From Alphaproteobacteria bacterium (lineage in GTDB: Bacteria; Pseudomonadota; Alphaproteobacteria; MPNO01; UBA830): a stretch of DNA of 64,000 nucleotides. The position numbers were made by a program, and so were the translations under genes. This document shows positions 8,231-23,486 of this stretch, piece by piece. The notes under the pieces were generated by a model, which was not told the DNA's origin, searched no databases, and was given only the letters and a program-made list of their open reading frames with translations. Numbering within the stretch: the first letter of the stretch is position 1; each line of letters starts with the position of its first letter. The stretch is from contig OZ219791.1 in assembly GCA_964291215.2 (NCBI GenBank), forward strand, positions 1,024,001 to 1,088,000, in the 5' to 3' direction.

Positions 8231-8731
8231 CCTTGTGGGGTCAGGGTGGTTCGGTAGCGCTTGCGCACGGCCAGGCGGTCAGCCTCGTTCAGGGTCCTGG
8301 ATGCGCTCTTGTTAACCCTGTGGCAGGCAGGATGATCCCACGCTGCTAATCCGGCGACGACTGGCGAGATTTTCTCAGTTTGCGTCACGCTGCAATCGTG
8401 CCACCAAGGCTTGATGGAGCCTTCAAGGAGGCGATCTGTGATGATCCGAGCCCCAACGCATTCGGATTTCGCGTCTCCGAATTAGCATGGGATCGTCGTG
8501 GTGGCAGGTCTCGCGCAGCAGTTTCTTCATCAGGCGTGCTCAGCGGTAGCCTCGGCGATGAAGGTCAGTTCCCTGAGCAGGCGGGACCCGCACAGCTGGC
8601 GGGTGCATGGATCGCAGGCCAGCCATGCGGCCCAGCAGTCGTGGGCCAGCGTGCCGGTGTAGCTGATGCCGATCTCCTCGATCGCCTGCCTGCCGCGCCT
8701 GCGATGCAGGAACCTGCACGTCAGGGATCTG
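8231..8731 (-). mobile_element. IS66 transposase internal remnant
   Basis: HRRRGRQAIEEIGI.YTGTLAHDCWA...LCGSRLLRELTFI...KRYRT; interrupted by a MITE and cut by an intron. Confidence 0.85.
8328..8500. mobile_element. MITE copy 2 (20-bp internal deletion)
   Basis: Same sequence as copy 1; gtggcagg on both flanks. Confidence 0.88.
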
Positions 8732-9149
8732 GTGTGCCAGGCGAACTGGCAGAAGGCAGGGGGTGGAAGTCCCCCGGAACGAAGGAGTAACCAAACCGCG
8801 TTTCTCCGCGAGCCGTGCGTCGGTTCCCGCGAGGGGGCAGGCGAAGCGTCGGTAGCGGGGCTGATGGGCACCGAAAAGACGATGATCCGGGGTGCCGAGG
8901 TTTTCGGATCGGTCGAAGGCAACATCGCAGGCATCGATTTGGTGAGATGCCGGCGCGCCTCGCGGTGTCAGAGAACCCGTCCGTACGTCTTCTGTCGGGA
9001 CCCTGGGAGATCTTCAAGCTGTCCCGCCTGTCGGGACCGCGCAGGGAAAGGAGAAAGCCGAAGCCTGTGATGAACGGTTTGAAGAAGGGGCCCTGTGAAG
9101 GCGGCGAACAAGGGAGCTTCTGCGGAGTTGCCGGAGGAAAGGGCCTCGA
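8732..9149 (+). mobile_element. Group II intron 5' part (ribozyme), truncated
   Basis: Starts GTGTG; near-identical to the 5' part of 39289-40872; fused to ISAs1 DNA at gcctcga. Confidence 0.8.
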
Positions 9150-18701: not shown

Positions 18702-19151
18702 CCGGCGGCTGATCGTGGAAACCGGCGGTCGGGTCCGCCTGCCGGAGTGGTTTCACCGGGAGATCGAGTGCGATCATGTGGTGCTGATCCCGCGGTAGCG
18801 TTGAATCTCGGTGACCGGGGTGGTCCGGACGGCAGGTTTGCAACTGTCGGGACAGTTTCATGATGCGAATCAGCTGTTCGTAAAGGCAACGGGGATCGCT
18901 GGCGCCAGCGCAATGGCGACAAGGCTCCCGGTTTCTTCCAAATGGGCAGAGGAGTCTCACGCTAAATTCTGTTTGTTTTTTTCAAGGCAGTACCTAGGTG
19001 TTGCGGGGGCGCGGGTTGGTGCGAGGAGATTTTTTACAGTTTTCGCTGGCTTTCCTGCACTGGAGTTGTCATAGTGCGGGGATGTCGGTTCACAAGCACA
19101 TCGCGTCCTGTCCGATACACGTCGCAGCTCCGGAAGGGTTTCGCCTGTCCG

Positions 19152-20446
19152 AGCATCCATGTTTCTTGGCAAGGTTTTTGCGGGTGTCTGTGGTGATGTT
19201 TTCTGTGGTTGTCCACAAGCGGTGTGGGATTTGCTCTGCGAGCGAGGCGACATGAAGCTTGTGGTCCCGGCGGCGGGTTGTCGTCCATTGGTCACGTGAA
19301 CGCGGCTACCTTGCCGTCCCCGGGCATGGTAACGTGACCGTCGTCAAGACAGTCCCGATCGCGGCGCTGCCTCTCGGCAGGGGTGAGGGCCATGAGGGTG
19401 GTCTCCTTCGCTCACTCACCGTGCCGGTGCTTCAGGCGCCCAGCAACGCTGCTGTCGCAGCAAGGTGTTCGCCAGAGCTTGCGCATCACGGCGACAATCG
19501 CGACCTTGCTTGCCGGCAGTCTTGAGGCGCACCAGGTCCGCGTTGAAGCGTGCCGGTTGCGGCCATGAACAGGAGATCGCGTGGCCTTCGGCGCCCGCCA
19601 CGGATGTGCCGAGCACCGTGGTCGTTGGCGCCACCCAGATCAAGGCTGCCGACGCTGCCGAGTTCGGGCATCCAGCAAAGAAAAGCCGCGGCGGTCACCG
19701 GATCGAGGTCAGGATGGCGTACCTCTGCTCGGGATCACCGGCGATCACCGCTTTGATCGCCGCGCCGGCAATGCGGTCATCGAGATCGGCCGCCGAGGCC
19801 CTTGTGACGGTCTCGCCATCCACCTCATCTGCCACCTGCTTGGCGTCGACAAGCGCGGCACCAAGAGATCCTCCAGGCTCTTGAGGAAGGCATCCTGAGG
19901 GGCCACAGGCTCGAGATCGCCCAGCCGATCTTGGCGTCGACGCGGTTGGCCCTTCGCCTCGGCGAAGCCCGCAACGGGTTGACGAGAATAACCTCGAAGC
20001 CCCGGTCATGAAGACACTGGTGAACCTTGCGGTGATAGCGGCCTGTCGCCCACCACCCGGCTCACCCCGAGGCCGCGAAGCCACTTGCCCGCCAGCTCGT
20101 GGCGTCGTTCGCAAAACAATGCGCCAGATGTCCAGACTGGCTGACCCCTGCTACTACCTTGACCATCGTCCCTTGTTCCTCGCCTTACGATGATACGGGT
20201 TCAAACCCAGGCATCCCCACAGCGAGGGACGTCAAGGGAGGTTGGCCGACCAAACTCGGTCGCGGCTCTGTCAAGGTCGAAACGGCAACCTCCGCGGAGA
20301 TCGTTTGATCCCCTGTGCGTGTTCGCTCAGGGGAGCGGAATCTCTCTGCAACCATAAACCGGACGCTCTCCCACAGATCCACATTTTCCCGCCCCAACTG
20401 CTGTGGATGATTTCATCATCAAGGGGACAAAACCTAGTCATATAAG
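19152..20446 (-). mobile_element. IS110-family element copy A (degraded)
   Basis: No TIR; CT core at both ends; removal restores the host frame (LSEVEVRE); highly similar to copy B. Confidence 0.88.
20170..20345 (-). ncRNA. Predicted IS110 bridge RNA (copy A)
   Basis: Non-coding left end with a 5' hairpin and two loops; guide tttcgacct (20274-20282) matches target cctcaacct allowing G-U/G-T wobbles. Confidence 0.65.
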
Positions 20447-21621
20447 GTTGAGGTTCGCGAAGCCTGAGGAGATACCGCTGCGTTGATGGACGACTATCTC
20501 GGGTTTCGCCGTCTGGCGGGGCTGCGCCATGTTGCGTCCTTCAGGGGGCAGTGGTCTGGCCGGGGCCTTCAAGTGCCGCGACCGGTGGCTGGAAGCCGGA
20601 GCAGCAGGGCTTGATCTGACAACACGCGACTGCTTGCGGCGCCGGGAACGTTTCCGAACCTTGCCTCCTTCTTTCTTGCGACGCGGCGGCTGGCCGACAA
20701 TTGGGCCTACGGCCACCAGGTGGCGGAGACGTTCTGCGATCCGGCGCGTTTTGCGGGCACAAGGCGGCGGGCTGGCGTGCCAGGGGGTTTGCCCGCGCCA
20801 ACGGGCGCTGCACCGACCCCCATGGCAAGGAGATTTTCGTTGTGCGGCGCGACGGCTACTGTCGCAGGCGCTGCGGTGGCGCCGCCTGCCTCCTCGCTCC
20901 CCGGGGTTCCGAGGTGATGCGTTCGCTGCACGACGAGTTGGCGGTGATCGAGGACTTCCGCCGCGCAGGAAGCACACGGTGTGCTCACGTTCTCGCCGAG
21001 CTTGCGAACATGAAGGGCTGCCTCGCAGCTGCGCAGTTCGCACAGTCGCTGTCCCGGGACGAGCTCAAGGCCATCGGCGGAACCCGAGGACGGAGCTGCG
21101 CGAGCCGCCCTCCGGGGCGACCCTCCACCGGGTCATCCGGTCGATCGATCCCGAGGCGCTCGAGGATGTGCTCGGCCGCGGGCTCGCCCGGGCGCTTGCC
21201 GCCGACGGCAAGCGCATCCGCGGCGCCAACCGCAACGGCCACCACGAGACCGTGGCCCTCACGCCTCCGGCGCACCCTTCGCGCTGTTGAACTTCGACGA
21301 CGGCGAGCTGGCGGCCACCTCCTCGAGCGCACCGATGTCCGCGGCAAGGTGATCACCCGCACGATGTCGGCGACGCTGATCACCCGGTGCTGCGGCGCAG
21401 ACCACGTCTTCCCGGTCAAGGGCGCCCGAAACCTTCGACGGCATCGACCGGGAGACGGATGGTCGCTTCAAGGAGGCAAGGCCCGCCTCGAGCAGCGCGT
21501 GCCGCTCGAGGATCTGATCAACTACTCCGGCAGATCGCCCGCATCAAGCGCTACCGCGAGCCGCCGGGAAAGAGCGCCAGCGGCGCAGCGAGCGGCAACG
21601 ACTGCACCGGTACATCATCAC

Positions 21622-23013
21622 CTTATATGACTAGGTTTTGTCCCCTTGATGATGAAATCATCCACAGCAGTTGGGGGCGGGAAAATGTGGATCTGTGGGA
21701 GAGCTATGGTTGCAGAGAGATTCCGCTCCCCTGAGCGAACACGCACAGGGGAGCGGGGATCAAACGATCTCCGCGGAGGTTGCCGTTTTGACCTTGACAG
21801 GGCCGCGACCGAGTGTGGTCGGCCAACCTCCCTTGACGTCCCTCGCTGGATGCTTGGGTTTGAACCCGTATCATCGTAAGGCGAGGAGCAAGGGACGATG
21901 GTCAAGATAGTAGCAGGGGTCAGCAAGGCCAGTCTGGACATCTGGCGCATTGTTTTGCGAACGACGCCACGAGCTGGCGGGCAAGTGGCTTCGCGGCCTC
22001 GGGGTGAGCCGGGTGGTGGGCGACAGGCCGCTATCACCGCAAGGTTCACCAGTGTCTTCATGACCGGGGCTTCGAGGTTATTCTCGTCAACCCGTTGCGG
22101 GCTTCGCCGAGGCGATGGGCCATCTGGCGAAGACCGACCGCGTCGACGCCAAGATCGGCTGGGCGATCTTGAGCCTGTGGCTCCGCCTTCCTCAAAAGCC
22201 TGTAGGATCTCCTGGTGCCGCGCTTGTCGACGCCAAGCAGGTGGCAGATGAGGTGGATGGCGAGACCGTCACAAGGGCCTCGGCGGCCGATCTCGATGAT
22301 CGCATTGCCGGCGCGGCGATCAAAGCGGTGATCGCCGGTGATCCCGAGCAGAGGTACGCCATCCTGACCTCGATCCGGTGACCGCCGCGGCCCTTCTTTG
22401 CTGGATGCCCGAACTCGGCAGCGTCGGCAGCCTTGATCGGGGTGGCGCCGATGGCCAGCGACAGCGGCCAGCACCACGGTGCTCGGCACATCCGTGGCGG
22501 GCGCCGAAGGCCACGCGATCTCCTGTTCATGGCCGCAACCGGCACGCTTCGACGCGGACCTGGTGCGCCTCAAGACTGCCGGCAAGGCCCACAAAGTCGC
22601 GATTGTCGCCGTGATGCGCAAGCTCTGGCGAACACCTTGCTGCGACAGCAGCGTTGCCTGAAGCACCGGTGAGTGAGCGAAGGAGACACGGCCCTCACCC
22701 CTGCCGAGAGCGCGATCGGGACTGTCTCGACAGTCTCCCTCTACGACACGACTTGGGGAGAATGTCTGCAGATCATCGTCGAGGTCGACATCAAGGAGAT
22801 CGAACCGCCTTGGGACACCTGGAACCCGGACGGTCACGTGCCCGGGGACGGCAAGGTAGCCGCGTTCACGTGACCAATGGACGGCAACCCGCCGCCGGGA
22901 CCACAAGCTTCATGTCGCCTCGCTCGCAGAGCAAACCCCACACCGCTTGTGGACAACCACAGAAAACATCACCACAGACACCCGCAAAAACCTTGCCAAG
23001 AAACATGGATGCT
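21622..23013 (+). mobile_element. IS110-family element copy B (degraded)
   Basis: CT core; MVKIVAG(-)VSK, KTDRVDA, G.APMASDSG...RHIRGGR, KVAIVAVMRKL; removal restores YIITSLDAQ of the host ISAs1. Confidence 0.9.
21721..21890 (+). ncRNA. Predicted IS110 bridge RNA (copy B)
   Basis: Hairpin 21721-21758; loop closed by ggaggttg/caacctcc; loop closed by cctcgc/gcgagg holding ggatgct (donor match), a gggtttgaaccc hairpin and gtaag. Confidence 0.7.
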
Positions 23014-23486
23014 CGCTCGATGCGCAACACGCGTCGCCAGAGGAACTGCTGCGGCCGCGGGCCGTGGAAAACGTGAACCACCGAGACTGCGTCTTCGGTG
23101 AGGACGCCTGGCTGACCCGCAAACCGCGCCAGCCTCGACAACATCGCGCTCGCGGTGATCTTCCCGACGCGAGAGCCTCGCCGAAACACGGCGGCGGCTC
23201 GACCGCCGGGAAGCCGTCGCAGCCCTGAGCACCAATGGTGTCCGGCCGATTCCCGGACGCCGCCCACATCCCGAAAACAACCCGCCCACGCGCCGATAAC
23301 GCCGCCGGCGACGACCGCGGACGGCCCCGAAGCCGGAAAACCCGGCACGCTGTGAAACCTCCAGACAGCAGAAGACAGCAAAATTGAATGCAGCATGAGA
23401 AACGCCTGTCCAAATGGGTAAACGGCGTTGATCGCGGACGGATGAGGCTCCACAATGCTTGGTATTCAATGTGCCGGGAGCAGAAA

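Follow-up and report, generated by a model that had tools for sequence, protein, structure and literature searches.

Decayed IS110-group copies with eroded predicted bridge-RNA genes and a varied guide repertoire in an alphaproteobacterial genome

Copies A and B and their intact relatives

In the genome of an alphaproteobacterium (G000; 6.15 Mb, 64% GC), a stretch of 64,000 nucleotides (G000:C2:1024001-1088000; hereafter the window) contains two copies, A and B, of an element of the IS110 group of insertion sequences (IS), both lodged in one decayed host transposon. A and B are probably broken copies of a single such element, and in each the gene for a predicted bridge RNA of the IS621 type is eroded; RNA-guided recombination likely moved the element as long as it was intact, and the mismatches between its guides and sites likely stem from guidance by sister copies, or exchange among them, and not from loose specificity. 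Coordinates without a contig name are positions in the window.

18946..23408, plus strand: host transposon, decayed; about 2.07 kb when empty, twice interrupted by IS110
19152..20446, minus strand: IS110 copy A, CT core to CT core; 1295 bp; at host site S1 (cctcaac CT cggac)
21622..23013, plus strand: IS110 copy B, CT core to CT core; 1392 bp; at host site S2 (tcatcac CT cgctc)

A and B are independent insertions, in opposite orientations and at different sites of one 2.07-kb host transposon. An empty copy of this host (L179) maps to the window as three pieces around A and B; its Pfam matches are PF14236 (DruA-like, N-terminal part) and those of a transposase, PF13808 (DDE_Tnp_1_assoc) and PF01609 (DDE_Tnp_1), which we take to be ISAs1-like. 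Both IS110 copies begin with CTtatatg and end with catggatgCT, without a long terminal inverted repeat and without a target-site duplication beyond the CT core, in agreement with an initial annotation made from the window alone. The donor is flanked by a 3-bp CAT/ATG inverted pair, as read from the sequence, and the left end of B measures 276 bp, from 21622 up to the start codon at 21898. Among uninterrupted host copies, the 14-mer target of A is found in 4 of 21 empty sites and that of B in 18 of 36, and empty host sites hold a single CT. Contigs from public sequencing runs skip A and skip B, the joint at B passing from 21621 to 23012 with a 2-nt overlap in runs X1 and X3 (three public runs hold 50-56% of the sampled 31-mers of B; all are from one study, and one may be the source sample). 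Because empty hosts carry the targets and the run contigs skip the elements, both targets are real and insertion was scarless at CT. Such insertion at a CT core, with no target-site duplication and only a short sub-terminal inverted repeat (STIR), is a feature of the IS110 group.

The family is represented in G000 by 65 left ends and 70 right ends, with 57 copies of 1.1-1.75 kb having both. An intact 315-aa homologue in a genome of the same genus led to closer intact proteins and from these to 159 loci; the 91 closer loci (L019-L107, L116 and L117) were parsed, and a target loop was obtained in 81. One of these relatives, L028, is an intact 1,968-bp element that is 92-94% identical to the five G000 copies tested. 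It matches PF01548 (4e-24) and PF02371 (2e-17), which gives the family the DEDD RuvC-like and Tnp domains of IS110-group recombinases, and residues D9, E51, D93, D96 and S232 do not vary across an alignment of 44 relatives. The first homologue search gave P0119 as its closest intact protein, which can be aligned with the recombinase of IS621 over residues 7-299 (E 2.6e-28). A DNA search in 60 related genomes returned only short, weak matches, in 6 of them. Measured against L028, the coding parts of the window copies are as follows.

19416..20166, minus strand: recombinase pseudogene of A; 199 of 948 nt missing, with the D9, E51, D93 and S232 codons affected
21898..22672, plus strand: recombinase pseudogene of B; 177 of 948 nt missing, with the D9 and E51 codons affected; PF02371 on 22433-22672
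22688..22810 (limits approximate), plus strand: remnant in B of a 96-aa passenger open reading frame (ORF), mostly deleted in A (start at 19393)
33740..33901, minus strand: 170-nt fragment of the same recombinase gene, not covering the first Asp

A and B thus keep only fragments of the DEDD and Tnp domains and, lacking an intact recombinase, are pseudogene members of the IS110 group. The initial annotation had counted a third copy in the window and suggested that the recombinase could be rebuilt from the three. The third copy does belong to the same recombinase gene but is only the 170-nt fragment, which misses the first Asp, and 156 of the 948 ORF bases, including the first Asp and Glu codons, are absent from both A and B. 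With these catalytic codons lost, the enzyme cannot be rebuilt from the window copies, and as L028 is intact there is no need to do so. L028 ORF positions 902-903, 1190-1191 and 1254-1260 occur in none of 207 G000 matches, the first Asp codon (D9) is kept in 2 of the 57 full-length copies and in one half copy, and the majority sequence of the 57 copies contains no open recombinase frame at any of four thresholds. Judged by sequence, every copy examined in G000 is a pseudogene. G000 yielded no intact helper of the A/B family. This genome has two further matches to the IS110 family, at C1:480856 (plus strand; L196) and C1:884303 (minus strand; L197), with open frames of 429 and 431 aa; neither matches the RNA model of the A/B family.

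The passenger ORF is intact in L028 (L028:2478-2768) and 71-100% identical in close relatives with long right ends. It has an EKQRRYRERR-type motif near its N terminus, and in L019 a second copy (341-625) lies 1.2 kb upstream of the recombinase. The decayed G000 copies of this ORF gave no Pfam match; the ORF had one weak PHROG match (E 0.025), and comparison with the atlas returned unnamed clusters only (0.94-0.96). Its conservation behind the recombinase accounts for the long right end of the close relatives: L028 has a left end of 317 bp against about 700 bp downstream of the ORF, whereas more distant relatives have 90-230 bp there. A left end longer than the right is a typical rather than a defining trait of the IS110 group, and the RNA still lies upstream of the ORF in L028. 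The IS1111 group was considered and ruled out, since the RNA lies upstream of the ORF and the inverted pair is only 3 bp long; IS1111 elements have the guide RNA in the right end and sub-terminal inverted repeats of 7-17 bp (PMC11208160).

Bridge RNA, guides and targets

The left end of each copy contains an eroded, predicted bridge-RNA gene, and boxes of a predicted promoter lie at the outer ends.

20164..20334, minus strand: bridge-RNA gene of A, eroded; 69.1 bits (E 8e-15) with covariance model R1
21734..21900, plus strand: bridge-RNA gene of B, eroded; 69.7 bits (E 6e-15) with R1; alignment to L028
19167..19172, minus strand: predicted -35 box TTGCCA of the A circle-junction promoter, ending 15 nt before the end of the core
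20442-20437, minus strand: predicted -10 box TATGAC of A
22993..22998, plus strand: predicted -35 box TTGCCA of the B circle-junction promoter
21626..21631, plus strand: predicted -10 box TATGAC of B, 17 nt from the -35 box after end joining

Model R1 was built from 33 relatives, whose alignment has a fold in which a long target-loop stem, with a hairpin inside it, comes before a donor loop; this order of a structured left-end RNA is again that of the IS110 group. Compensatory changes occur at 11 of 37 pairs, and covariation is 0.255 against 0.145 in shuffled and at most 0.098 in slid alignments, the structure being derived from the same alignment. The covariance-model comparison proposed with the initial annotation recognizes both window copies. 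A and B, however, lack stem strands that are invariant or nearly so among the 33 relatives, and in B deletions of 6, 5 and 8 nt take out invariant strands. The sole scaffold-intact copy in G000, at C1:1320149 (minus strand; L194), scores 157.6 bits with R1. Given 69-70 bits for A and B against 158 in that copy, the bridge RNAs of the window are relics and not the new, working bridge RNA that had been proposed. The scaffold-intact copy has kept its first Asp and lost its 3' half; its left guide matches the flank in a register shifted by one base, and its right end was not found within 15 kb. A search of 19000-23200 against Rfam gave a single chance-level match (E 0.6) and no bridge family, and single-sequence folding was uninformative (z -1.4 for the first 276 nt of A and -1.1 for B, against -3.0 for intact L028).

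As to the predicted promoter across the joined ends, TTG stands 17 nt ahead of the -10 box in 32 of 32 distinct junctions of relatives, extended to TTGAC in 16; conservation of the -10 box is circular because that motif also served as the left-end anchor. The IS621 junction promoter requires such a -35/-10 layout across joined ends (PMC11208160). Among the joints listed from the public-run contigs there was no end-to-end circle joint, and among the public runs listed with matching sequence there was no RNA run; neither result has a bearing on activity.

The guides within the two loops can be read as follows.

20274..20282, minus strand: left target guide of A together with the core, tttcgac ct; 7/7 paired, three of the pairs being wobbles
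20255..20261, minus strand: right target guide of A, reading CT cggtc; mismatched to the flank of A at +4 only
20210..20217, minus strand: left donor guide of A, gggatgcc; first base damaged, after a local deletion
20184..20188, minus strand: right donor guide of A, gtaag; one G:T wobble to CT tat
21786..21794, plus strand: left target guide of B together with the core, ttttgac ct; mismatched to the flank of B at two positions
21807..21813, plus strand: right target guide of B, reading CT cggtc; mismatched to the flank of B at +3 only
21847..21854, plus strand: left donor guide of B, tggatgct; the same sequence as the left arm and core of the donor
21876..21880, plus strand: right donor guide of B, gtaag

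The target guides, gtaag and the TTGCCA spacing all lie where the initial annotation had placed them; its donor loop with ggatgct is present in B, and in A reads gggatgcc. Its statement that A pairs fully with wobbles is correct for the left arm. Over the 5-nt right guide A has one true mismatch, and B has three mismatches in all (two left, one right) instead of two. The length is that of the relatives, in which pairing of the right guide extends over 5 nt or more, with 75-88% Watson-Crick pairs per position. The 7+3-nt match of A was equalled by only 17 of 239,512 sampled CT sites in the genome, far beyond chance, and that of B by 4,965 (2%), which is weak when taken alone. Guides of sister copies fit both sites better than the residents' own: C1-2036510 pairs with the site of A at 12 of 12 positions, and C2+3343628 fits the site of B at 10 of 12 Watson-Crick positions, against 8 for B itself.

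The readings of these loops are borne out by covariation between guides and targets among homologues, a check that the initial annotation had itself put forward. Across the 81 loci of relatives, 3.88 of 7 left-arm positions matched against 2.04 with shuffled guides (37 guides; p 5e-5), and 4.08 of 5 right-arm positions against 1.45 (31 guides; p 5e-5), the left guide pairing with the bottom strand and the right guide with the top strand; a control with the right guide set against the left flank was flat (p 0.44). Within G000 the values were 4.15 against 3.30 on the left (10 guides; p 0.0015) and 4.04 against 2.81 on the right (9 guides; p 5e-5). In 25 distinct pairs of guides whose elements differ by less than 10%, the differing guide bases match their own target in 213 of 266 cases and the partner's in 20 of 266, pairs with identical guides being left out and the pairs not being independent of each other. 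Donor guides likewise match the joined ends, and the right donor guide covaries with them, in relatives as well: the donor guide that matches TGT accompanies 4 of 4 TGT donors and 3 of 33 TAT donors, a limited test as the donor is nearly invariant. That guides and flanks agree by chance, or that the mosaic copies are an assembly artefact, might be argued from the poor match of B alone; the flat control beside p values of 5e-5, and public-run contigs that carry both deleted and undeleted forms, have already refuted this idea and leave it a negligible chance.

Bridge architecture of the IS621 type with a CT core, as first annotated, is therefore supported by the readable target and donor guides and by their covariation in homologues. 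The likeness to IS621 (PMC11208160; PMC13626964; structure 8wt6) extends to a DEDD plus Tnp recombinase of about 315 aa, a left-end RNA with the target loop before the donor loop, a left guide that reads as the top strand and a right guide that is complementary to it, the CT core, the absence of a target-site duplication, a STIR of 2-3 bp, a promoter formed by end joining (predicted here) and targets inside a repeat. The recombinase is, in contrast, a distant homologue, and the right guide has at least 5 nt instead of 4 (longer pairing is noted in the IS621 paper). The A/B family further differs in its long right end with the 96-aa ORF, in targets that are transposons and not repetitive extragenic palindromic (REP) sequences, in having many guides per genome and in that the copies here are dead. 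From sequence, then, the A/B family would appear to work like IS621 and shows those IS110-group features that a pseudogene member can show, expression and circles being predicted.

Within G000 the guides form a repertoire. Of 63 matches to the target loop one was spurious and was dropped, and the remaining 62 loops contain 10 left and 9 right variants; the scaffold-intact copy C1:1320149, read separately, adds one of each, which brings the totals to at least 11 left and at least 10 right guides. Mean heterozygosity is 0.24 in the guide columns and 0.048 elsewhere (0.21 in the highest other 12-column window), and all four bases occur in 3 of the 12 guide columns against 1 of 1,124 other columns. 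Most G000 target sites lie inside other multi-copy elements. Several guides per genome are also seen among intact relatives (L046-L053, L067-L079 and L094-L096). No report of guide repertoires within one genome was found in the literature, in a search that did not extend to supplements; that of PMC11208160 may already list the family.

ISEc21 and ISMch6, described with seekRNA, are comparable in having an upstream guide RNA, a junction promoter and an insertion into the transposase gene of another IS, and in one instance base changes in the guide have redirected such an element in nature, between transposases 72% identical (PMC11187229). In G000, by contrast, redirection occurred many times, among copies 0.5-10% apart, in one genome and towards several sites of several host families. 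The G000 family thus constitutes a compact natural data set on the evolution of bridge guides, in which many guides, one scaffold and donor, and matched and unfilled sites occur together. For experimental testing, the intact and naturally reprogrammed relatives (L019-L117), with 37 left and 31 right guide variants, are available without reconstruction.

Site choice and the source of guide mismatches

According to the initial annotation, one bridge RNA with a relaxed acCTcg specificity would explain the imperfect guides of A and B, and the sites of both do read acCTcg. Of the copies with intact junctions, the motif fits 15 of 36 and so misfits 21; among distinct sites it fits 6 of 15. Guides moreover differ between copies and track the site classes, and single-base discrimination is seen at S3, S4, S6 and S7. 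At S3, CGGT is present in all 19 filled sites and in 8 of 21 empty ones (p 2e-5), while none of the 13 sites that differ is filled, so that one-base variants stay empty; S6 is used in 13 of 14 cases, and S7, which differs by one base at +5, in 1 of 24. The low mismatch tolerance reported for IS621 also speaks against relaxed specificity (PMC11208160). This earlier view is very improbable and already largely refuted.

Discrimination of this kind does not mean that residents carry the fitting guide. The right guide does not match in 11 of the 19 S3 residents. Right half-sites match some G000 guide at 4 of 4 positions in 56 of 58 copies and the copy's own guide in 38; left half-sites match some G000 guide in 33 of 39 copies and their own in 23. 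Nor is kinship closer among filled hosts than between filled and empty hosts at S1 (p 0.71), S2 (p 0.79), S3 (p 0.65) or S6 (p 0.38); among the six sites with enough copies, S10 is borderline (p 0.13). From the occupancy at S3, S6 and S7 and from this absence of closer kinship at most sites, it follows that the site-choosing guide is usually matched but is not always that of the resident. The same data bear on passive amplification, in which a few IS110 insertions were multiplied as passengers of a moving host transposon. As such a process would predict, the flanks of most copies recur at other copies, and the filled S4 hosts are alike (p 0.049). It is nevertheless quite unlikely in view of the kinship results at S1, S2, S3 and S6, and IS110 copies of S1 and S3 interleave on a tree of single-nucleotide polymorphisms (SNPs).

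Guidance by sister copies is the simplest reading, because the donor hardly differs from copy to copy and the IS621 bridge RNA is reported to work in trans (PMC11208160). The favoured course of events would be as follows. By analogy with IS621, the ends of an intact element would join at CT into a circle, and a promoter (-35, 17 nt, -10) would thereby be assembled that transcribes the bridge RNA; the donor loop alone can support excision in IS621 (PMC13626964). As indicated by covariation, the 7- and 5-nt guides of the target loop would track the landing site and the donor loop the joined ends. The guides, which as observed vary far more than the rest of the element, would be aimed mostly inside other multi-copy transposons. 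The RNA of one copy could then bring the circle of a sister to its own target, trans delivery being feasible because all copies share nearly the same donor; alternatively, later recombination between copies could swap guides. By either route a copy would be left beside a target that fits the guide of another. Finally, shared 5-8-bp deletions, which post-date the split of lineages II and III, would have killed both the recombinase and the RNA scaffold.

Exchange between copies does occur, as SNP mosaics exist and the share of four-gamete failures grows with distance, from 27% to 53%. Another possible source of the mismatches is stepwise retargeting, in which an element lands with mismatches or on a half match, point mutations then fit its guide to the new site, and descendants fill more copies, B being at the first step. 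Half-match insertion is known for IS621 (bioRxiv 10.64898/2026.08.31.748434). The S2 copies are 0.5-1.1% apart and have three (B), two (C2+261248) and one (C2+3343628) mismatches to S2; all three share a rare marker base between both guides, which a single conversion tract would have replaced. Similarly, L094 and L096 share one target and differ at one right-guide base, which matches in L094. Three copies are, however, too few to set the direction of change, and S3 is left unexplained, where 11 of 19 residents are mismatched and yet sites with the other base were never filled. Stepwise retargeting is compatible with guidance or exchange among sisters and may hold for B alone.

Several points weigh against RNA-guided movement with sister guidance or exchange as proposed above. 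The permutation tests are not corrected for relatedness, the left-guide signal in G000 is weaker when wobbles are allowed (p 0.007), and the occupancy tests treat host copies as independent. The three filled hosts at S4 are more alike than expected by chance (p 0.049). At S2 there are 18 perfect empty sites against 3-4 filled ones, and therefore matched sites are not always saturated. Relatives such as L071, L075, L078 and L084 match well on one arm only, which would fit half-match insertion. Most copies keep their lineage state, and the data do not separate trans-guidance, gene conversion and stepwise guide mutation. The circle, its RNA and the delivery or exchange step are themselves proposed, in part by analogy. 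As they stand, the G000 data suggest that specificity is tight as far as +5 and that sister copies guided one another. Should this be true, the site of a copy need not follow from the guide that the copy itself carries, a point of importance when bridge RNAs are mined.

Recurrent short deletions in repeated DNA

Relative to L028, each of the 57 full-length copies has 26-50 deletions of 4-25 nt. Distinct deletions of 5, 6, 7 and 8 nt number 21, 39, 28 and 10 events, respectively, with few at 2-4 nt and an echo at 12. Segments that are retained in both lineages II and III differ at 15 of 201 sites, about the divergence between the lineages, and the deletions are therefore later than the II/III split; it follows that the element likely moved while intact. 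Identical deletion coordinates recur in lineages about 6% apart, and diagnostic SNPs only 4-9 nt away keep their lineage state.

The reverse order, in which lesions were fixed first and the broken copies were then moved by the enzyme of an intact helper, would account for a 6-nt deletion in the target-loop stem that is present in 57 of 57 full-length copies and for the loss of the first Asp codon in 55 of 57. In one other genome, six of six aligned copies at different sites share one 7-nt ORF deletion (L038, L039, L042, L043, L048 and L059). Non-autonomous IS110 modules have reportedly been described for ISPpu9 and MITEPpu9, where an IS110-family element in repeats is said to have extra RNA modules that are possibly mobile in trans; the G000 copies are by contrast decayed full-length elements and not dedicated mini-elements, and trans movement is here hypothetical. 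In G000 the retained segments are lineage-specific and non-nested, two copies only 8 SNPs apart differ by 25+5 gaps, which shows deletions outrunning divergence, and the genome yielded no intact family helper, the L196 and L197 frames being without sign of the family RNA. Such non-autonomous spread is unlikely. Beside it stands the observation that the eight copies of the other genome (L038-L043, L048 and L059) have one guide and occupy different, mostly matched sites, which makes them candidates for movement in trans.

The deletions are not confined to IS110. Their spectrum recurs in five families of host repeats. Counted from either 5' end, the second base of the deleted units tends to be a pyrimidine, both in IS110 (0.76 against 0.49) and in the hosts (0.63 against 0.50). 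Among 2,500 sampled 600-nt tiles, 921 (37%) have a repeat elsewhere in G000, and within these the number of 5-8-nt gaps per 100 SNPs is 2.9 where there are 2 copies and climbs through 4.7 and 8.9 to 19.4 at 16 or more copies, with the caveat that low-copy repeats may be functional genes under selection. Microhomology at the deletions exceeds chance slightly when measured against L028 (mean 1.16 against 0.76) and does not exceed it against L019 (0.82 against 0.78). Ku and Piwi were not found in G000, and the MutS frame is open. In decayed copies of other genomes (16 loci, with few events) the coordinates of the 4-20-nt deletions of G000 are not shared, which argues against universal hotspots. 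Loops of at least 5 nt escape MutS; speculatively, this might let deletions pass between copies while SNPs are corrected.

A bolder proposal, rather unlikely at present, is a silencing of repeats that functionally resembles fungal repeat-induced point mutation (RIP) but acts by deletion: 5-8 bp, with a peak at 6, would be removed at recurring positions from multi-copy DNA, the more often the more copies there are, without moving neighbouring SNPs between lineages, and this would have frozen a burst of bridge-RNA retargeting by about 60 IS110 copies which, with at least 10 guides, aimed themselves and each other into transposons. The literature search found no report of copy-number-dependent 5-8-bp deletions. 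A survey of bacterial pseudogenes (PMC6054270) is alike in showing a deletion bias in decaying DNA and some excess of 6-nt deletions. That survey describes a power law with an excess of multiples of three, whereas in G000 deletions of 5, 6 and 7 nt are several-fold more frequent than those of 2-4 nt, recur at the same coordinates across lineages and scale with copy number. Recurrent, copy-number-dependent deletions of 5-8 bp could mark a host mechanism against repeats; if the silencing proposal were true, G000 would document how guides are reprogrammed in nature and would at the same time give the first sign of a bacterial repeat-induced deletion pathway.

Two observations on deletions at target sites may be coincidence. 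Many empty S1 sites (12-13 of 21) and S2 sites (10 of 36) have a 6-7-nt deletion lying exactly on the IS110 target, at a generally high density of deletions. At filled S3 sites the left junction is lost in 14 of 19 cases, about half through an 8-nt deletion and the rest through other sequence.

Other repeats and elements were seen in passing. The DruA-like domain PF14236 occurs inside two different transposon families, the DDE_Tnp_1_assoc type of the window host (L179) and a Tnp_DNA_bind type (L186). An array of 27-nt tandem units occupies 35048-36193 of the window, and repeats at 8725-9149 and 39282-39676 resemble what we take to be 5' regions of group II introns. In the flank of L017, a frame that is presumably reverse-transcriptase-like lies beside another IS110 copy.

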